From: an archaeon
GTDB taxonomy: Archaea; Iainarchaeota; Iainarchaeia; Iainarchaeales; CSSED10-239
DNA length: 64,000 nt
NCBI GenBank assembly: GCA_041657425.1
Contig: JBBABY010000005.1
Coordinates: 22,834-86,833, forward strand
Direction: 5' to 3'
Of the stretch, positions 21,335 to 52,247 are shown one piece after another; positions within the stretch are counted from its first letter, which is position 1; each line of letters begins with the position of its first letter. The position numbers and the translations under genes are program-made. The notes under the pieces were generated by a model that worked only from the letters and a program-made list of their open reading frames with translations, did not search any database and was not told the DNA's origin.

Positions 21335-21359
21335 CACTGGACAGCTACCCCCCCGAAAA
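21335..21359 (+). promoter_or_regulatory. GC-rich motif CACTGGACAGCTACCCCC(CC)GAAAA upstream of radA (copy 1)
   Basis: 18-nt core identical to 61187..61204; GC-rich in an AT-rich intergenic region about 80 bp upstream of radA. Confidence 0.4.
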
Positions 21360-21436
21360 TACCCCCCTTTTGAAAAACAATAGTATTATTACCCAAAATA
21401 AAAGGGTTTAAAAGAATAAAAGGAGAGTAGATATTT

Positions 21437-22456
21437 ATGAAGAAGGTAAAGAAGGAAGATAATATGGATGAAGAATTTACTAATGAAGAAGTTTCTGAAA
21501 ATACAGTTGTAGAACCAGGAAAGAATATGTCAATAACTGATTTGCCAGGTATTGGTCCAGCTTCTGCTGAAAAACTTTTAGCTGGGGGTTATGATTCTTT
21601 AGAAGCTATAGCTGTAGCTTCACCTAGTGAACTTGTTGCAGTTGCTGGTATTGGAGAAGGAACTGCAATTAAAGCAATTAAGGCAGCAAGGGATTCATTA
21701 GAAATGGGTTACGAAACTGCAGAAAAGATACTTGACAGAAGAAAATTAATAGCAAGAGTTTCAACTGGTTCAAAGGAGCTTGATGAATTGTTAGGTGGAG
21801 GAATAGAAAGTCAATCAATCACAGAAGTCTATGGAATGTATGCTTCTGGAAAATCACAATGGTGTTTTCAATTATGTGTAATTGCGCAAATGCCTACAGA
21901 GAAGGGTGGGTTAAATGGAGGAGTTCTTTACATTGATACAGAAAACTCATTTAGACCTGAAAGAGTAGCGCAGATTGCAAAGTACAGAGGGCTTGATCCT
22001 GAAGAAGTTATGAAAAATATTTTTGTAGCAAGAGCGTTTAATAGTAATCATCAAATGCTTTTAGCAGATAAGGCGCAAGAACTAATTAAAGAAAAAAATA
22101 TTAAACTTGTAATTGTTGATTCCTTAACAAGTCAATTTCGTTCAGAATTTGTTGGTAGAGGTCAGTTATCAGACAGACAACAAAAACTAAATACTCATAT
22201 GAGATTACTTCAAAAGCTTGCAGAGCTTTATAATGTTGTTGTGTTTGTAACAAACCAAGTAATGTCAAGACCTGATGTTTTGTTTGGAGATCCAACAGAT
22301 GCTATTGGTGGTAACATCGTTAAGCACGCTTCAAAAACAAGAATCTATTTAAGAAAGAGTTCAGGGTCTAAAAGAATTGCAAAGCTAGTAGATTCTCCAA
22401 GCTTACCAGATGGCGAAGCAGTATATCAAGTTACAGAAAATGGAATCACAGATTAG
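21437..22456 (+). CDS. radA: DNA repair and recombination protein RadA
   Basis: N-terminal HhH ([13 protein letters not shown]), Walker A region [14 protein letters not shown], RecA-fold core. Confidence 0.9.
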
Positions 22457-35129: not shown

Positions 35130-36089
35130 ATGAAAAATAATAATTACAAATTAATTACTTTTGCAATAGCGGCATTAGTAATTGGAGCAATACTTAGTAC
35201 ATTACTGATTAGTACAGTAAGTGCAGAAAAGACAGACCTTACAAATATAGATGCTCTTGAAATCACAGATCCAGAATCAAGAACAAATTTAATATTAAAT
35301 TTATTAAAAGTAAATAGAATACAAAATAGAAATAATAATCCATTATTTATTGATTCTAGTAATCAATTATCTATCAATGGAGATACTTATGTAAGTATTT
35401 CATCTCCAAACACTGCAAAATTAGGATCAGGAAATGCAGTAGTTAAAGCATTTGCTAATGGTCAAGAACAACAAGCCGGTTCAAAAGTAGAAATTAATGC
35501 AAATAATTTCTTTGTAGGACATGGTGGACAATCAGTATTTAAAATAATAGGCGGAGCTAACGAATACGGTGCACAATATTCTCAAGTAATAATAGAAACA
35601 GGAGTTCAAATGAACCATTATTTACAAGTTAATAATGGGCTTTATGCAGATGGCGCAAACATAGGCGAACATCATAATCAACCAGCATTACAAATTGTAA
35701 GAAATGGTCAATCCGGCAATTACACTTCAGAAATTACAATTAATGCTCCTACCAGATTTCCTAATCTTTCAGAAGGCGCCACCAATACTGGCGCAATATA
35801 TCATTTAGGAGATACTTTTCTTATAGAAAATTATACTGTAGAAGTTATGAATATTTGGGACGCAAATAACGCAGTTGAAATGCAATTAAGAAATGACGTT
35901 AATGGCATAATTGCAGAAGAAGTCTATAGTGAAGGAGATGCAATCTTTGAAGATTATCTTACCACAACTCTTATAGTAGATGGGATAGACTCAGATAGTG
36001 TAAGTATAGTTATACCATCAGGAAATACATACTATGCCTGTTTAACAGAAGACGGAACACTATTTAGAAGCAATGATCCTTGTAACTAA
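35130..36089 (+). CDS. secreted/surface protein, paralog family member A
   Basis: N-terminal TM/signal; shares module ESRTNLILNLLKVNRIQNR and about 95-aa C-terminal domain (GDTFLIEN...GNTYYAC...DGTLFRSNDPCN) with 37792..38628. Confidence 0.6.
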   Translation: MKNNNYKLITFAIAALVIGAILSTLLISTVSAEKTDLTNIDALEITDPESRTNLILNLLKVNRIQNRNNNPLFIDSSNQLSINGDTYVSISSPNTAKLGSGNAVVKAFANGQEQQAGSKVEINANNFFVGHGGQSVFKIIGGANEYGAQYSQVIIETGVQMNHYLQVNNGLYADGANIGEHHNQPALQIVRNGQSGNYTSEITINAPTRFPNLSEGATNTGAIYHLGDTFLIENYTVEVMNIWDANNAVEMQLRNDVNGIIAEEVYSEGDAIFEDYLTTTLIVDGIDSDSVSIVIPSGNTYYACLTEDGTLFRSNDPCN

Positions 36090-36125
36090 GCAAATTAACC
36101 AATAAGATTATTCTAGAAAAATAAT
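36090..36125 (+). terminator. hairpin plus T-tract after surface protein gene A
   Basis: Inverted repeat AAGATTATT-ctagaaaa-AATAATCTT followed by TTTTTTCTTTTT. Confidence 0.4.
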
Positions 36126-36269
36126 CTTATTTTTTCTTTTTATTCTATTTTTAAAAATCAGACAATTTGCAGAAAAAACTTGGCAGAAAGTTAGACAATT
36201 TGATTAAAAAAGTAAGCAATTTATCTAAAATTAGAGATATATTTAAAAACCTTTCGTTATATTATATAT

Positions 36270-37538
36270 TTGATAAATATGTTTGAAATATACAAAATTC
36301 AAAATCAACATTGGGAAAACAAATTATACGATTTACCAATAAAAAGAAAAATTTTAGAAACTTTAAAAAAAGAACTATTAAATCACAAATTAATTATTTC
36401 TATAGAGGGGCCAAGAAGAGTAGGGAAATCTGTTTTAATGAAACAATTGATTAATTATCTTATAGAAAATAAAGTGCCTTCAAAAAACCTATTTTATTTT
36501 TCTTTTGATAAACTTGATAAAAAGATATTAGATACATTAAAGGACTATGAGGAATTGTCCGGAATATCATTAAGAGAAGAAAAAACTTATTTATTTTTTG
36601 ACGAAATTCAAAAGATTAAAGATTGGCAATCAGATATTAAGATAATTTATGATAATTATCCAAATTTAAAAATAATAGTAAGTGGATCTACATTAAGAGT
36701 TAGTAAAAAAGAAAGCCTTGCAGGAAGGATTGTTGATTTTTTTATTAATCCTTTATCTTTCGAAGAATATCTTATATTTTCAGGTAAAGAAAAATTATTA
36801 GATTCAGAAATAGATTATATTTTTGAAAAAGAGTATAATAATTATTTATTTAGGCAATATCCAGATATTGTTTTAAATAAAGAAATAGATTCCACGCAAT
36901 ATATTTCATTAATTCTACAAAAAGTGATTTTTGAAGATTCGGAAAAGTATATTAGAAATGTGGATAAAGATATTTTATACAAAATTTGTATGATTATACT
37001 TAGAGATCCTGGGCAGATTATTAATTATTCTGACTTATCGAAAGATTTAGGTGTGAAAAGAGAAGTTGTTTCAAAATATATTGATTTTTTAGTTAATTCT
37101 GGAGTTGTAAAAAAAGTTTATAATTTTTCAAATAATTCTCGAAAATTAGAGATTAAATCTAAAAAGTTTTATCCGTATTGTACATCACTAACAAGAGCAG
37201 TAACTGATAATCCAGATATGGGTAAGATTATAGAGACTGATGTTTGTTTTCAATTAGATGCAAAATACTTTTTAAATAACAAAGGTAAAGAAGAAATAGA
37301 TTTTCTACTTATAGACCCGATAACTTCTAAAAAGATAGGGGTAGAAGTAAAATATAGAAATTTAATAACAAATAAAGACGTAAGTGCATTTAGATCAGCG
37401 ATAGTTAAAAAGTTAAATTTGGATAAAAGAATAATAATTGTAAAAGCAGAATCAAAATTAGATTTTAATACAAAAGAAATAGTTCCTGTCATGTATTTTA
37501 CAATCTTTAAACACCAATCAGAATTCAAATTTAAATAA
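36270..37538 (+). CDS. AAA+ superfamily ATPase (COG1373-like, AAA_14 plus DUF4143)
   Basis: Walker A GPRRVGKS, Walker B LFFDEIQ; architecture typical of archaeal COG1373 ATPases. Confidence 0.65.
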   Translation: MINMFEIYKIQNQHWENKLYDLPIKRKILETLKKELLNHKLIISIEGPRRVGKSVLMKQLINYLIENKVPSKNLFYFSFDKLDKKILDTLKDYEELSGISLREEKTYLFFDEIQKIKDWQSDIKIIYDNYPNLKIIVSGSTLRVSKKESLAGRIVDFFINPLSFEEYLIFSGKEKLLDSEIDYIFEKEYNNYLFRQYPDIVLNKEIDSTQYISLILQKVIFEDSEKYIRNVDKDILYKICMIILRDPGQIINYSDLSKDLGVKREVVSKYIDFLVNSGVVKKVYNFSNNSRKLEIKSKKFYPYCTSLTRAVTDNPDMGKIIETDVCFQLDAKYFLNNKGKEEIDFLLIDPITSKKIGVEVKYRNLITNKDVSAFRSAIVKKLNLDKRIIIVKAESKLDFNTKEIVPVMYFTIFKHQSEFKFK

Positions 37539-37722
37539 ATAATTCTGGGAAAATATGAACTCGCAAAAAAAGAAAAAAACAAAGAAGTTCTTTGCAGAAT
37601 TAAATAAAAGAAGCATAGAAGCAAAAGATAAATCTAATTTTATTTCTTTAAGGTATTTATAAACACAGTAAAGGCACTCTAATTCTTCCAAACACTTGGA
37701 AAAAACCATATATTTATAAATT

Positions 37723-37736
37723 CCCCCCCCCCCCCC
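37723..37736 (+). repeat. homopolymeric poly-C tract (C14) in promoter region of surface protein gene B
   Basis: 14 consecutive C between TTTATAAA and ATAGATAATATAG, 55 bp upstream of the ATG at 37792; unique in the window. Confidence 0.9.
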
Positions 37737-37791
37737 ATAGATAATATAGTATTAAAAAATTAATTAAAACAAAATTACGGAGGAAATTAAA

Positions 37792-38628
37792 ATGGCAAAA
37801 GAAAATAATAAAAAGCTAATCATTTGGGCGTTAGTCGCTTTAGTGGTTGGTGTAGTAATAGGTCTACTATTAACAAGTATAGTAACAACAGGAAATGCAG
37901 CAACCGCATTAGGTGAAAAATCAGCAACACTTGATACGAAAACCACAGAAGATAATGTAGTTGAATCAAGAACAAACTTAGTATTAAACTTATTAAAAGT
38001 AAATAGAATTGAAAATAGAGACGAAGATTTATTAATTCATGCAAATAGTGGAACTGAACGTCTTATGTTATGGGGAGACACAATGACAAATATTTGGGCT
38101 CCAAGCATAGATATTTCTGGATCTACAGCGGTCGCAATTTCTACACCTGTAAATTTTATAGGATTAGGAACAGATGGTATAAATATTTTTGCTCATAATT
38201 TTATGATTGCTAATTCAGAACAAACTCAAACAAATCCAATAATTTCACTTGATTTAGAAAATTCTGAATTAGTCATAAATGCATCCACTACAAAATTTAT
38301 AAATGTCGTATCTGTAAGTCCAATCATTTCAGAATATAGTGTAGGAGACACATTTACTATAGAAAATAATACTATAGAAGTTGCTGCCATTTGGGATGCA
38401 AATGGAGTAGTTGAAATGCATTTGTTCGATGCAAATATGATAAATCCAATTGTTGAATTTTACGGAGAAGGAGATATAATCTTTAATCAATATTTAACTG
38501 CAAGTTTAAAAGTAGAAAATATTTCTCAAAATGTAGTAGGCATTGTGGTTTTACCAACAGGCAACTCATATTATGCATGTATAGGATCTGATGGAACTTT
38601 GTTTAAAAGTAATTATCCATGTAACTAA
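37792..38628 (+). CDS. secreted/surface protein, paralog family member B
   Basis: N-terminus MAKENNKKLIIWALVALV shared with 50212 and 51300; ESRTNLVLNLLKVNRIENR and YYAC/PCN C-terminal domain shared with 35130. Confidence 0.6.
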   Translation: MAKENNKKLIIWALVALVVGVVIGLLLTSIVTTGNAATALGEKSATLDTKTTEDNVVESRTNLVLNLLKVNRIENRDEDLLIHANSGTERLMLWGDTMTNIWAPSIDISGSTAVAISTPVNFIGLGTDGINIFAHNFMIANSEQTQTNPIISLDLENSELVINASTTKFINVVSVSPIISEYSVGDTFTIENNTIEVAAIWDANGVVEMHLFDANMINPIVEFYGEGDIIFNQYLTASLKVENISQNVVGIVVLPTGNSYYACIGSDGTLFKSNYPCN

Positions 38629-39131: not shown

Positions 39132-40841
39132 CTATGTGTTTAGAAATTCAAAGGTACTGGTTGTTCCTTTTTTAAATTTGTGATTTTTTAAGAAATCTAT
39201 GTGGTCAAATCTTTCTCTTGTAATTTTTTCTTTATCTGTGTCTTGTAGTTGTATAAAATTATTAATATCATAAGAACACAAAAATTCAGGCATAATCACA
39301 TAGTCTGCTCCAGCATGATATAATTCTAAAGCCACATCTATGTGATCATTAACTACAATAAATAAGATATTTTTGTTTTTAGATTTAATCTTAGATATTA
39401 AAAAGTGATTAATGGAATAAGAATTAATTGTTGATATAATTACTTTTATTTTAGAGAGATTTAGTTCTTCTGTTAATTCAACATTTCCTGCATCTCCATA
39501 AATATGATTAATTCTATTTTTTGTAAGTATTTTATCGATTTCGGGATTATGGTCAATTACCAAAAATTTTTTATTTTTCGTTTTAAGATATTCTCCAACA
39601 CCCATTCCTACTTTATTATATCCAAAGATGATATAATTATAATCTTCTATAATTTGCACTTCGTCTCTTGCATTTTTCTTTTCAAAGATATTTAGATATT
39701 TTCCGATTTTATCAAATATCCAATCAGAATATATTATCATGTAAGAAGAGCAAGTAATTGTTATTAGCCCTACAAAGGTAACAAATGAAAGAACCTCTGT
39801 TGTTAAATGTCCCGCAGTAATTCCTAAAGCGATAAGGATTAAAGAAAATTCAGAAATTTGAGCAACAGTAAGTCCTGCCATAAATCCTACTTTTTTTTTG
39901 TAACCCGATAGTCCCATAATAATCATAACAATTAAAGGATTACCTATTAAAATAAATAATGACAAAATTATTATTGGAATAATGTGTGCGGAAAAACTTC
40001 CAAAAGTCATTTGTAATCCTAATAATACAAAAAATAAAATCAAAAAGAAATCTCTTAGTGGTTTAAGCTTAAGGTTTATCTCAAATCTGTACGTTGAAAA
40101 AGACAAGAAAAATCCTGCAAGAAGCGCCCCGATTTCAATAGAGAAACCAAAGTAAAAAAACAATGCTGCAAGTATTAAACACCAACCAATTGAAAATAAT
40201 AATAAAAATTCTTGCGATTTTGCTACAAATTTAAGAAATTTAGGCAACAAATATATTGAAAATAATAACAATCCAATTACTAATCCAATGCCAATAAATA
40301 TATTAGTTAACATTGATGATTTGTTTTGTCCACTAAGAGAAGAAATAACAATTAAAACAACTATTGCAACAAGATCTTGAACAACTAAAAAACCAATAGA
40401 TATTTTTCCATAAAGAGAATTGACTGCCCCCTTATCTGTAAGCAACTTCATTATAATAATGGTACTACTAAATGCAAGAGCTAAAGACACATAAAGAGAA
40501 GTAACCCAATTAAATCCTATAAGTAAACAAATAAGATATCCTATACCAGTAGTAAAAACAATTTGACCAATACCTGTAAATAAGGAAACCTTGCCCACTT
40601 CTTTTAAGACTTTAGGATTAAGATTTATCCCTACCATAAATAACAATAAAGAAACGCCTATATGTGAAAATACCGTAATTGACGAGGTGTCTTTAATAAT
40701 ATTTAGAACATATGGACTAACTACAATTCCTGTAAGTATATATCCAATAATTAGTGGTTGCTTTAATAATCTAATAATTGTAGTTATGATAATAGCTATG
40801 AATATAATAATACAGATTTCAATAAAAAAATTATTAATCAT
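39132..40841 (-). CDS. CPA2-family K+/H+ antiporter (Kef-type) with TrkA-N domain
   Basis: Na_H_exchanger membrane domain followed by a Rossmann TrkA-N (IIFGYNKVGMGVGEYL). Confidence 0.7.
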   Translation of the reverse strand: MINNFFIEICIIIFIAIIITTIIRLLKQPLIIGYILTGIVVSPYVLNIIKDTSSITVFSHIGVSLLLFMVGINLNPKVLKEVGKVSLFTGIGQIVFTTGIGYLICLLIGFNWVTSLYVSLALAFSSTIIIMKLLTDKGAVNSLYGKISIGFLVVQDLVAIVVLIVISSLSGQNKSSMLTNIFIGIGLVIGLLLFSIYLLPKFLKFVAKSQEFLLLFSIGWCLILAALFFYFGFSIEIGALLAGFFLSFSTYRFEINLKLKPLRDFFLILFFVLLGLQMTFGSFSAHIIPIIILSLFILIGNPLIVMIIMGLSGYKKKVGFMAGLTVAQISEFSLILIALGITAGHLTTEVLSFVTFVGLITITCSSYMIIYSDWIFDKIGKYLNIFEKKNARDEVQIIEDYNYIIFGYNKVGMGVGEYLKTKNKKFLVIDHNPEIDKILTKNRINHIYGDAGNVELTEELNLSKIKVIISTINSYSINHFLISKIKSKNKNILFIVVNDHIDVALELYHAGADYVIMPEFLCSYDINNFIQLQDTDKEKITRERFDHIDFLKNHKFKKGTTSTFEFLNT

Positions 40842-40926: not shown

Positions 40927-42615
40927 ATGACACATTTACTATTATTGAATATTGCAATTATCATAATTTGTGCAACAGTAATGACATTTATTTTTACTAA
41001 ACTTAAACAACCATCTGTTCTCGCATTTATAGTAACTGGTATTTTAATAGGTCCGTTAGTTCTTGGTTGGGTTAATAATTCTGAAGAAATAATGTTAATT
41101 TCTGAAATTGGAATTGCCTTTCTTTTATTTAGTGTAGGAATTGGAACGGATTTAAAAGAATTAAAAAGTTTAAAATTATCGATTATTCTTTTGCCATTAA
41201 TAAATATAGTTCTTATGTTTATATTTTTATTTGTATTTAGTAAAGTTATTAATCTCACATTAATTCAATCATTATATTTTTCTGTCATATTGTCATTCAG
41301 TTCCACAATGTTAGTTGCTAAGATTTATTTAGATAATTTTATGATTGATTCTTTGCATGGGCGGATTGCGATCGGAATACTTCTTGTTGAAGATCTTATA
41401 GCCATTCTTGCAATTCCAATTTTAAAAAATTTCAGCGAATTTACATTTTTGATGTTTTTAATAATTCTTGCAAAGACTGCGGTATTTGTTCTTTTTGCTC
41501 TTTTTTTAAATAAAATTGTGTATCCTTATATTATAAAACAAGCATACAAATCTGAGCAAAGTTTCTTCTTATTATCAATTGCAAGTTGTTTTATATTTAT
41601 TATGTTATCTTATCTTCTTGATTTTCCAATGGCCGTTGGTGCATTTTTTGGGGGGGTTGCAATTTCTATTTATCCGTATAGTTACGAAATCTCTAATAAA
41701 ATCTCAAGTATAAGAGATCTTTTAGCAACTATTGTTTTTGTATCTTTAGGTATGCAGTTATCTTTAAATATTTCTAACGATATTTTCTTTATAATAGTAA
41801 TATTTATACTTGCATTTATAATAAAACCAATAATTCATTTCTTTATGATTTTATTTGCAGGATATGGTACAAAAATTTCTTTAAGAGTATCTGGAGATTT
41901 AAACCAGATTTCTGAATTTTCGTTAATAATAGCAATGCAAGGAATCGCTTTGGGGCAAATTACAAGTTCACAATATGCAATAGTGATTATAATTACTTCT
42001 CTATCAATGTTAACAACACCTTATGTAATGCTTAATAGTGAAAAGATATATACTTTCTTTAAACCAATAATGGATAGATTTAAGGAAGAATTTTGGCACA
42101 GGCAAATAAATTCATTGTCTACCATTTCAAAAGATATTAAAGATCACATAGTAGTAATTGGTTCAGATGTAATGACTGAAGGTTTCATAAAAGTAGTTTC
42201 AAGAGATGTAGATCAACCAATTATCTTAGTGGATTATAATCCAGAAAAGTTATTAGCTTTTCAAAACAAAAGAATAAAATATGTTTGTGGAGACATCAAC
42301 TATAAAGAAGTAATGAATGCAGTAAATTTAAAAGAAGCAAAACTTGCAATATTGACTGCTCCAAAGTTTGATACAACAATAAGATTTCTAAAAACTGCAA
42401 AAACAATTAACCCTCGGCTTCCAATTTATGTTAGAGCAAAAACTAAAAAAGAAGCATTACAATTATATGAGCTTGGTGCAGATTTAGTGATCTTACCACA
42501 TGTTTTAGAATCAAATTATCTTCTTCAAAAAGTTTATTCTTTTGTTAAAGATGGTCCCGAAAGAAACAAGGCTCTAAGATCTGAATATTTAAGTTATTTA
42601 AAAAAAGAAAATTAG
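40927..42615 (+). CDS. CPA2-family K+/H+ antiporter (Kef-type) with TrkA-N domain, paralog
   Basis: Same architecture as 39132..40841 (membrane domain plus VVIGSDVMTEGFIKVV Rossmann); divergently arranged. Confidence 0.7.
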   Translation: MTHLLLLNIAIIIICATVMTFIFTKLKQPSVLAFIVTGILIGPLVLGWVNNSEEIMLISEIGIAFLLFSVGIGTDLKELKSLKLSIILLPLINIVLMFIFLFVFSKVINLTLIQSLYFSVILSFSSTMLVAKIYLDNFMIDSLHGRIAIGILLVEDLIAILAIPILKNFSEFTFLMFLIILAKTAVFVLFALFLNKIVYPYIIKQAYKSEQSFFLLSIASCFIFIMLSYLLDFPMAVGAFFGGVAISIYPYSYEISNKISSIRDLLATIVFVSLGMQLSLNISNDIFFIIVIFILAFIIKPIIHFFMILFAGYGTKISLRVSGDLNQISEFSLIIAMQGIALGQITSSQYAIVIIITSLSMLTTPYVMLNSEKIYTFFKPIMDRFKEEFWHRQINSLSTISKDIKDHIVVIGSDVMTEGFIKVVSRDVDQPIILVDYNPEKLLAFQNKRIKYVCGDINYKEVMNAVNLKEAKLAILTAPKFDTTIRFLKTAKTINPRLPIYVRAKTKKEALQLYELGADLVILPHVLESNYLLQKVYSFVKDGPERNKALRSEYLSYLKKEN

Positions 42616-50138: not shown

Positions 50139-50152
50139 ATATATATATATAT
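50139..50152 (+). repeat. (AT)7 dinucleotide repeat in promoter of surface protein gene C
   Basis: ATATATATATATAT; the paralogous position upstream of gene D has (AT)6. Confidence 0.85.
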
Positions 50153-50211: not shown

Positions 50212-51162
50212 ATGGCAAAAGAAAATAATAAAAAGCTAATCATTTGGGCATTAGTAGCTTTAGTGATTGGTGTAATAATAGGGTTAGTAATAACAAACCT
50301 GACAACAACAGGAAAAGGGGGTTATATCTCTGAAATTCACCAGATTCGTCCAAAAACACAGGTTGGGATAACTATGCCTATTCCAATTTATTTGGAGTTA
50401 GTTCAAGAAATAGATAGTGTTAATGGTGGAACAGGTACTATTAATAAGTATGCGTTTATTGAAAACGAAGAATTTCACTCTAATTTACCCGGGAAAGTTA
50501 GAAAAAATACCACCGTCAACTTTTCTGATGGCACAGTATTATCTGACGATTATACTTCAGAATTAGAGTATTCTGCATATTATTCAGAATATATTGCAGG
50601 AACCTTTTTTGGTCCATTTACTTCAATAGAGGCTACTATATATGATATGAAAGTAACTTCTATAATTGATGCACACTTTAAAATAGGTTCTAAAATAATA
50701 CCTAAATCATTAACAACTGTATTTAATCCGAATGAAGATTTATTTGCAGTAGTTAATAGTCTTGATTTAGATTGTAGTGGTCAATATAATCTAACACATT
50801 CAGAAGTAGGAGATATTGATGAAATATCTGGGAATTTATATATTTCTCAATATAATCAAGGCACCGGTTGGACTAATGTTTTACAGGATTACCCTTTAGA
50901 TTTAACCTCGTCAGCAGATAATACCTATACAGGATATATTCCAGCATCTGCAATAACTCAGTTAAACAATGGAAGTCAGTACATTAGAGTGTCGATTAAT
51001 AGTCACATTATTACTGCAACAGGATTACAAACAAGTGCAGAAATGCACAAATATCTAAATTGTCAAACCAATAAATCTGAATCATTAACTCCTGAAGAAA
51101 TAAAGGACGTGAGAAAGATAACAGGCTATAAATCAATAGATGAAAGAGCAAAAATAAAATAA
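50212..51162 (+). CDS. secreted/surface protein, paralog family member C
   Basis: N-terminus MAKENNKKLIIWALVALVIGV shared with genes B and D; C-terminal YLNCQ motif shared with D; start moved to the ATG at 50212 after the GGAGG RBS (track ORF begins at 50197). Confidence 0.6.
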   Translation: MAKENNKKLIIWALVALVIGVIIGLVITNLTTTGKGGYISEIHQIRPKTQVGITMPIPIYLELVQEIDSVNGGTGTINKYAFIENEEFHSNLPGKVRKNTTVNFSDGTVLSDDYTSELEYSAYYSEYIAGTFFGPFTSIEATIYDMKVTSIIDAHFKIGSKIIPKSLTTVFNPNEDLFAVVNSLDLDCSGQYNLTHSEVGDIDEISGNLYISQYNQGTGWTNVLQDYPLDLTSSADNTYTGYIPASAITQLNNGSQYIRVSINSHIITATGLQTSAEMHKYLNCQTNKSESLTPEEIKDVRKITGYKSIDERAKIK

Positions 51163-51230: not shown

Positions 51231-51242
51231 ATATATATATAT
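51231..51242 (+). repeat. (AT)6 dinucleotide repeat in promoter of surface protein gene D
   Basis: ATATATATATAT inside a ~175-bp block near-identical to 50139..50317. Confidence 0.85.
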
Positions 51243-51299: not shown

Positions 51300-52247
51300 A
51301 TGGCAAAAGAAAATAAAAAATCATTAATCATTTGGGCATTAGTAGCTTTAGTGATTGGTGTAATATTAGGATTAGTAATAACAAATTTATCAACAACAGG
51401 ACAAGCAAAATCTATAACAGAGGTTGCGCCAAGAACATTAATTGGCACGGGATATAATTTTGTATTATATCAAAATATGAGTTTTGAAAATCCAAATGGA
51501 GAATATCTTTTATGGACGCAAGAAAACTTACAATCTAATGTTCCTGCAAGAATTAAAAAAGAATCTTCAATGTCATATAATTTAGACGATTTCAGACCAT
51601 ACTTTCTTAATTCTTCTATAACTAATACAGAAAGAGCAGAAAATAGCAATTTAGGTTATGCTGCATATCCAGAAACTGTTTTATGGTTTCCAAACACAAC
51701 AAACACCCCCACCGTGTCCTATTCTTATTTTACAGAATGGACTTTTGGTAATGGAGTGACTAAAACAGAAGGTACTGGTTATTCAGTAAATGAAAATTAT
51801 AATTCATTTATAGAAGCAAGTTCTTTAAATGTAAATTGTTCTAATTATGAACTTGTTCATTCTACCCCTACGGGAATTAATTATCTTGGATATCAATTCT
51901 ATATATATGATACAACTTACAATTATGATCAAGTTTATTACGGGTCTTGGATAGAAGCAAGAATAAATCCTAACGGTATTCAACAAGGAAATTTGCCACA
52001 AGAGGCAATAGATATATTGCAAAATAATAATGGATATGAGGGAGTATTGATTGCACATATATCTACTACCGAGAATATGTATACTGTGGTTTACAGTGCT
52101 AATACTTATTTAAATTGTCAAAATGGCGCAATTACTAAATTAAATTCTGATGGTTTACAAAAATTACAACAAAAAACAGGAACTCCAATAGACGTAATAA
52201 AAAAATTACATGAAGAAGGTAAGATGCCTTTTACAGTACAAAAATAA
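51300..52247 (+). CDS. secreted/surface protein, paralog family member D
   Basis: Same 5' block as gene C (signal/anchor region identical at the DNA level), divergent body, YLNCQ C-terminal motif; start moved to the ATG at 51300 after the GGAGG RBS (track ORF begins at 51285). Confidence 0.6.
   Translation: MAKENKKSLIIWALVALVIGVILGLVITNLSTTGQAKSITEVAPRTLIGTGYNFVLYQNMSFENPNGEYLLWTQENLQSNVPARIKKESSMSYNLDDFRPYFLNSSITNTERAENSNLGYAAYPETVLWFPNTTNTPTVSYSYFTEWTFGNGVTKTEGTGYSVNENYNSFIEASSLNVNCSNYELVHSTPTGINYLGYQFYIYDTTYNYDQVYYGSWIEARINPNGIQQGNLPQEAIDILQNNNGYEGVLIAHISTTENMYTVVYSANTYLNCQNGAITKLNSDGLQKLQQKTGTPIDVIKKLHEEGKMPFTVQK

Follow-up and report, generated by a model that had tools for sequence, protein, structure and literature searches.

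In a 64-kb stretch of archaeal DNA (the window), a tract of 14 uninterrupted C residues (C14) lies just upstream of gene B, which encodes a protein of 278 residues with an N-terminal membrane anchor, and tracts of differing length occupy the homologous position in related loci. Our favoured explanation, to which we give a probability of about 50%, is that the tract is real, selectively maintained and prone to slippage, and that it forms part of a conserved promoter or 5' cassette driving a family of N-terminally anchored, variable and probably surface-located proteins, whose expression would vary as the length of the tract switches. Overall, the tract is a well-supported candidate for such an element, and the comparative data considerably strengthen the reading of a first-pass annotation of the window, which had proposed a phase-variation switch at this site and is supported in part.

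The poly-C tract and its homologues

The tract was read directly in the sequence, on the sense strand of gene B, and it ends 55 nt before the ATG (Table 1). The first-pass annotation had described a C14 run beside a TATA-like element and about 55 bp from this ATG, as the only long G/C homopolymer in 64 kb of roughly 30% GC, and all of these points were borne out. The G+C content of the window is 29.3%, and its longest other G/C run has 7 nt; runs of at least 6 nt comprise two C7 (at 15322 and 21348), one C6, one G7 and two G6. Because the C10 pattern was matched in none of 100 dinucleotide-preserving shuffles of the window and the other G/C runs do not exceed 7 nt, the C14 tract is far beyond chance expectation. 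A separate pair of short C runs, C7 and the window's only C6, is found in CTACCCCCCCGAAAATACCCCCCTTTTG (21348..21367), 70-90 nt 5' of radA (21437..22456), and this C7 ties for the second-longest C run of the window.

Altogether, poly-C tracts were found at the homologous position in seven loci (that of the window and six others) from independent assemblies. A metagenome scan with the cassette pattern yielded 23 loci; 18 of these, with neither the N-terminus of the family nor its upstream cassette, were excluded as unrelated. A GTDB scan with an alignment of four sequences yielded two loci. Scans of viral contigs gave a single match, on a contig labelled GVMAG. All tract lengths given here are those of assembled consensus sequences rather than of reads, and homopolymers of 14-15 nt are error-prone in short-read assemblies. 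The comparison of orthologous loci called for by the first-pass annotation revealed that the tract is kept as an upstream element at lengths of 9 (L032), 10 (L034), 13 (L035), 14 (window and L003) and 15 nt (L027), and in an interrupted form, C9TC4, in L021 and L004, two independent samples that are 100% identical over their shared 1,527 nt. The protein encoded at L027 differs from that of gene B by one residue, while L034, on a 52-kb contig of a metagenome-assembled genome (MAG), precedes a gene of the other C-terminal subfamily.

The C run is on the sense strand in all seven loci and is separated from the ATG by 55-57 nt, except in L034, where the spacing is 62 nt. Downstream of the tract, ATWRATAATATA is present in seven of seven loci, abutting the tract in six and following it after 3 nt (TCA) in L034, and the stretch from ATWRATAATATA to the ATG is well conserved and nearly free of indels. 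Upstream, TTTATAAA was found in five loci, in four of which (not in L034) it is part of the longer ATATATTTATAAA; L027 has lost this box, and L003 has it in degenerate form. Across about 150 kb of lineage DNA (the window and related loci, partly redundant), every C run of at least 8 nt lies 55-62 nt before the ATG of a family gene, on its sense strand, or at a contig edge. The tract remains near-pure C even though its flanks (84% mean column identity) and the encoded proteins (down to 43-44% identity) have diverged, which points to selection for keeping the homopolymer unbroken.

Could the tract itself be an artefact of sequencing or assembly, for instance from poly-G/C tails of reads or from a homopolymer that was collapsed or expanded? 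Several short contigs do begin or end in C runs, and the exact length of a long homopolymer is unreliable in short-read assemblies. However, in seven assemblies, which come from different projects and assemblers, the tract lies in the interior of the contig between flanks that are homologous on either side; contigs of 92.6, 52 and 12 kb are among them. Its existence is for this reason not an artefact, an explanation that we regard as barely credible, and its exact length alone is uncertain. Contigs also end repeatedly at the tract (L002, L004 at both ends and L003 at its 3' end), which would be compatible with length heterogeneity but also with sequencing difficulty. Two further independent assemblies of one locus, L007 and L008, share their starting base, which lies 54 nt upstream of a family ATG, about where the poly-C tract of the L035 orthologue would end.

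Closely related loci differ in repeat length. The window (C14) and L027 (C15) are separated by one single-nucleotide polymorphism (SNP) over 2,152 nt downstream of the tract, although a 1-nt difference in a homopolymer of 14-15 nt between short-read assemblies could be a consensus error. L003 and L021 have tracts of equal total length, C14 and C9TC4, respectively; an interruption of the latter kind would stabilise a tract. Indels are nearly absent from the flanks while the tract spans 9-15 nt, and a repeat that is hypermutable and under selection would be expected to combine, as here, a high indel rate with retained purity. Two properties of contingency loci are present here, namely a long pure repeat and, in consensus lengths, polymorphism of repeat number among close strains.

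Gene family, sister promoters and host

The gene B product starts with a charged segment, after which comes a hydrophobic helix some 25 residues long, and it carries the conserved motif RxxLxLNLLKVNRI and a conserved C-terminal domain ending in YYxC...PCN. Between them, the middle region varies in sequence and length among homologues, which have 226 to 319 residues overall. No Pfam match was obtained for the products of genes A and B or of the family genes at 50212 and 51300. The AlphaFold model of gene B reaches a predicted local distance difference test (pLDDT) score of about 90 for residues 178-255 only, corresponding to the C-terminal beta-sandwich, and fold comparison gave weak beta-sandwich similarities as the sole structural hints. 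On visual inspection a class III (pilin-type) signal peptide was rejected, because K or S rather than G or A precedes the hydrophobic stretch. Gene B had been annotated as a surface-protein gene. Its N-terminal anchor, its variable middle region and its place in a small multigene family are borne out; a location of the product at the surface is a reasonable inference from the hydrophobic anchor and the weak fold similarities.

The family is narrow and lineage-restricted, because a HMMER scan of 1.84 billion representatives returned 124 matches, most of them to the N-terminal module alone. Many short public proteins (P0149-P0249, 35-180 residues) match only the N-terminal ~40 residues (MAKENKKSLIIWALVALVIGV...), and this module appears to be common to a wider set of small membrane-anchored proteins, or to genes truncated at contig ends. 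Within the window, the genes at 50212 and 51300 share with gene B only the ribosome-binding site and the first ~37 residues, which are 73% identical between the 50212 product and that of gene B.

In these two sister genes, the place of the poly-C tract is taken by an (AT)n repeat, and the two repeats are the longest AT repeats of the window. Repeats of (AT)6-10 ending 51-61 nt before the ATG of a family gene were likewise found in L001, L005/L032, L014, L036 and L037-39. Two interchangeable cassette types are distinguished, poly-C (9-15 nt) or (AT)6-10, with the repeat ending ~51-62 nt before the ATG. The two types are mixed over protein subfamilies and syntenic positions; for instance, the family gene beside CTP synthase has (AT)6 in the window and C13 in L035. 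L005 and L032 differ by one AT unit as the sole difference over about 1,300 nt. Repeat-bearing promoters on a family of hypervariable, N-terminally anchored proteins are the hallmark of contingency loci.

Table 1. Coordinates and properties of the features discussed; positions refer to the window unless a related locus is named.
Feature	Position	Strand	Remarks
C14 homopolymer, candidate slippage-prone element	37723..37736	+	Direct reading, shuffles, homologous tracts
TTTATAAA, palindromic TATA-box-like octamer	37713..37720	+	2 nt upstream of tract; direct reading
ATAGATAATATAG, AT-rich block abutting 3' side of tract	37737..37749	+	Direct reading; contains ATWRATAATATA, common to 7/7 poly-C loci
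GGAGG Shine-Dalgarno motif	37780..37784	+	7 nt before ATG; within conserved 5' cassette GGAGGAAAYYAAAATGGCAAAAGAAAA
Gene B, 278 residues	37792..38628	+	N-terminal membrane anchor, variable middle, conserved C-terminal beta-sandwich
Gene A	35130..36089	+	Paralogue of gene B (35% identity), no upstream repeat
Family gene	50212..51162	+	Same 5' cassette and N-terminus as gene B, different C-terminal domain
(AT)7 repeat	50139..50152	+	59 nt upstream of family gene 50212..51162
Family gene	51300..52247	+	Same 5' cassette and N-terminus as gene B, different C-terminal domain
(AT)6 repeat	51231..51242	+	57 nt upstream of family gene 51300..52247
Small lysine-rich open reading frame, 35 residues	37555..37662	+	Just upstream of gene B promoter region; orthologues in L001 (4776) and L014 (1959)
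RHH-ParE alternation loci	L003 1185..1673; L004; L005 1753..; L032; L035 2772..3260		

Sequence divergence changes sharply at the tract. The window and L027 show about 20 differences in the 70 nt upstream of it (37653..37722) and the single SNP already mentioned downstream, and L003 and L021 show 9 differences in 48 nt upstream (L003 1..48) and none in 1,514 nt downstream. In both pairs, an identity of ~75-80% upstream of the boundary gives way to near-identity over 1.5-2.2 kb. The 3' end of L003 matches the region 5' of the L021 tract with 100% identity. In the relatives, family genes alternate with RHH-ParE toxin-antitoxin pairs in tract-bounded arrays, poly-C following ParE, and the C runs at both ends of L003 and L004 are suggestive of tandem cassettes composed of tract, gene, RHH and ParE.

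The sharp boundary would reflect either cassette recombination at or near the tract or the joining of paralogues by assemblers across a shared cassette of ~130 nt. On the first of these, the tract could be a recombination boundary or initiator, that is, the 5' edge of an exchangeable cassette that promotes gene conversion or shuffling, for example through breaks at a G-quadruplex (G4) or a stalled fork; the pilE G4 of Neisseria is the likeness cited for gene conversion promoted by a tract. The boundaries in two independent pairs, the match between L021 and the L003 end, the mixing of both promoter types across protein subfamilies and the tract-bounded arrays all speak for such a role. However, chimeric short-read assembly across the paralogue-shared cassette would give the same pattern, a Pfam scan of the neighbours revealed no recombinase gene near gene B, the (AT)n promoters have no such boundary, and a canonical three-tetrad quadruplex would need one base more than G14. 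We consider recombination an improbable explanation for the tract.

The host was proposed to be an archaeon, and its gene content agrees. The window carries genes for an RNase PH-type exosome subunit, prefoldin beta, a DUF1699 protein and RadA, and the syntenic relative L001, a 429-kb contig, has a full archaeal exosome superoperon (in the order proteasome alpha, SBDS, Csl4, Rrp41, Rrp42, L37ae and prefoldin) and a histone gene. The best named relatives of RadA are from 'Candidatus Diapherotrites archaeon' (87% identity) and 'Candidatus ainarchaeum sp.' (83%). Public records contain a protein identical to the gene B product, annotated as hypothetical and encoded on a 92.6-kb contig of a MAG labelled 'archaeon'. 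The organism is an archaeon of the DPANN group, Diapherotrites/Iainarchaeota-like.

Several differences in gene content surround the family genes. In L001, a single family gene follows prefoldin, while the window has the extra paralogue gene A (35130..37538 of the window compared with 4744..5001 of L001); relative to L001, gene A and a gene for an AAA_14/DUF4143 ATPase (36270..37538) are inserted before the small open reading frame and gene B. The product of this small frame is MNSQKKKKTKKFFAELNKRSIEAKDKSNFISLRYL; it precedes the promoter of a family gene in three genomes, with ~57% identity to the L001 copy, and could encode a co-regulated small protein. The window also contains divergent, paralogous genes for a Na+/H+ exchanger with TrkA-N (39132..40841 on the minus strand and 40927..42615 on the plus strand), of which L001 has one.

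Promoter geometry and competing explanations

At archaeal TBP/TFB promoters, the start site is measured from the TATA box and falls about 25 nt further downstream. The favoured explanation proposes three steps: replication slippage would alter the length of the tract, the altered length would change promoter output, and individual family members would as a result be variably expressed across the population, as at a contingency locus. In AT-rich DNA several TATA candidates are possible near the tract, which is flanked by TATA-like elements within a conserved cassette, and two geometries were considered.

In the first model, TTTATAAA would be the TATA box, the tract would fill approximately positions -21 to -7, transcription would start near 37740..37746, and the ATAGATAATATAG block would serve as the initiator or melted region. 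A longer tract would then place more G:C in the melting region and shift the start along the AT-rich block, and expression is predicted to be high with short tracts and low with long ones. This model is favoured by the consensus TATA character of TTTATAAA, its retention in five of seven loci and its resemblance to ATATATTTAT upstream of tRNA-Cys. In the second model, the invariant ATAATATA block (within 37737..37748) would be the TATA box, with a start near 37767..37772 and a 5' untranslated region of ~22 nt. The tract would occupy the position of the TFB-recognition element (BRE) and its upstream flank, and its length would set the phasing of ATATATTTATAAA relative to the core promoter. The observation that sequence conservation begins at the tract argues for this second geometry.

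TATA-like matches upstream of 15 genes of the window and in tRNA upstream regions were too noisy, in DNA of 71% A+T, for a choice between the candidates. As to the earlier placement of the tract in a promoter, AT-rich elements that could each be the TATA box are found on both sides; L027 has lost the upstream TTTATAAA, while no variation is seen in the downstream block. A sigma-70 promoter with -35 and -10 boxes around the tract was also sought, and none spans it. Because no promoter of this type spans the tract and the host is archaeal, the bacterial -35/-10 spacer mechanism cannot apply. The first-pass annotation had likened the tract to bacterial promoter-spacer switches, and this comparison does not hold as stated, the archaeal start being measured from the TATA box.

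Several observations weigh against length-dependent switching. With the start set from the TATA box, a change in tract length need not turn the promoter on or off. The destruction of TTTATAAA in L027 and its degeneration in L003 argue against the first geometry, and it counts against the second that the BRE-proximal bases would be C at any length of the tract. Gene A and L006 carry no repeat, one (AT)9 locus is identical in three assemblies, and the 1-nt difference between the window and L027 may reflect a consensus error. The surface location of the proteins is argued from the N-terminal hydrophobic anchor and weak fold similarities alone.

Alternatively, the tract may be a fixed cis-element, a structural or protein-binding part of the promoter whose length drifts by slippage without regulatory effect; it could act as a C-rich BRE-like contact for TFB, as a regulator site or as a stiff G:C tract that excludes archaeal histones. 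Its position and composition are conserved across loci, it starts the conserved block that reaches the ATG and would, with ATAATATA as the TATA box, have the location of a BRE, tracts of 9 to 15 nt all precede intact genes, and histone genes are present in relatives. On the other hand, a binding site would not need 13-15 identical bases in unbroken succession, which are hard to keep in a 29% GC genome, and the (AT)n at the same place in sister promoters indicates that the repeat character rather than a specific sequence is shared. Known archaeal BREs are, moreover, purine- or A-rich, which counts against a fixed C-rich BRE. We consider a fixed element unlikely, though it retains a real share of the probability.

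A role in a leader RNA was considered as well. The tract would in this case be transcribed from further upstream, for example together with the small open reading frame, and would mask translation by pairing with GGAGG. The exact complement of GGAGG, CCTCC, is part of the C9TC4 variant, which occurs in two independent samples; the minimum-free-energy fold also pairs part of the C run with GGAGG. In contrast, the centroid structure is without most of this pairing, the TATA-like elements flanking the tract make a start downstream of it more likely, and pairing with 5 nt needs no tract of 9-15 nt. Since the predicted structure is weaker than shuffled controls (z = +2.1, with 198 of 200 shuffles at least as stable), an anti-Shine-Dalgarno role is unlikely, and we assign the leader-RNA explanation a very small chance.

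Relation to known systems and implications

Repeat-mediated phase variation is a textbook form of bacterial bet-hedging. The nearest analogues of the system proposed here are all bacterial. In Neisseria meningitidis, poly-C/G tracts in the opc and porA promoters give graded expression of outer-surface proteins according to their length, through a -35/-10 spacer mechanism that is inapplicable to an archaeal promoter.

Among these systems, the fimbrial genes fim2, fim3 and fimX of Bordetella pertussis and B. bronchiseptica carry a promoter poly-C 'C-stretch' of 7 to 19 nt (Willems et al. 1990; Gogol et al. 2007, PMC1891110). The likeness extends to the organisation, a small set of surface-structure genes each with a poly-C tract in its promoter region, to single-base polymorphism between strains, and to the position of the tract, which has a conserved upstream box beside it and the start codon 21-80 nt away. 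In Bordetella, however, the promoter is of the sigma-70 type, and the tract spaces the BvgA activator site from the -10 box; its length affects transcription (PMC1891110). The promoter here would be of the TBP/TFB type with no -35/-10 pair spanning the tract, and the length may affect transcription. The conserved box that may correspond to the Bordetella activator site is ATATATTTATAAA, upstream of the tract in four of the seven loci, with TTTATAAA also in L034 and the same loss in L027 and degeneration in L003.

The (TA)n switch in the promoter of hifA/hifB in Haemophilus influenzae (van Ham et al. 1993, as cited in a review, PMC11868660) resembles the sister (AT)6-10 promoters in that a TA repeat of varying unit number lies in the promoter of a surface appendage. 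In hif, two divergent promoters have their -35 and -10 boxes set apart by the repeat, whereas the archaeal promoter is unidirectional and the (AT)n would itself be its TATA box. The Mycoplasma hyorhinis Vlp system (Rosengarten & Wise 1990/1991, as cited in the same review, PMC11868660) offers another parallel. A reduced genome, a multigene family, a conserved promoter and N-terminal cassette and divergent, size-variable external regions are common to both, as is a promoter homopolymer of its own for each gene, allowing combinatorial expression. The poly-A tract of Vlp lies between the -35 and -10 boxes. The Vlp proteins differ in being bacterial lipoproteins that vary through internal tandem repeats, and such repeats were not seen here.

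Within the archaea, diversity-generating retroelements reportedly target surface proteins in DPANN members. They share with the present family a dedicated hypervariation of surface-exposed proteins in small-genome archaea that are probably host- or partner-dependent. In contrast, the retroelements use a reverse transcriptase to rewrite coding sequence, whereas in the present family it is expression that a non-coding repeat would vary. Next to gene B, neither a reverse transcriptase nor a template repeat was seen, the rest of the window not having been screened for them. Full-text literature searches found no archaeal promoter switch driven by a repeat, and a 2025 review of phase variation names archaeal phase-variable loci as future work and an open question (PMC11868660).

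With less confidence than in the favoured explanation of the tract itself, we suggest that this may be the first repeat-driven contingency-gene system in Archaea. It would consist of a surface-protein family with interchangeable poly-C or (AT)n promoter cassettes, in which slippage within a TBP/TFB-type promoter, in the TATA-to-start spacer or the BRE flank, produces stochastic, combinatorial variation of the surface; the tracts might also be breakpoints of cassette exchange. Existing metagenome reads could test this hypothesis directly. If it is true, localised hypermutation of surface-protein expression has evolved, or been retained, under a eukaryote-like transcription apparatus, and its mechanistic rules must differ from those of bacterial -35/-10 spacing. 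The system would then provide a handle on how DPANN archaea with tiny genomes vary their surface towards hosts, partners and viruses.

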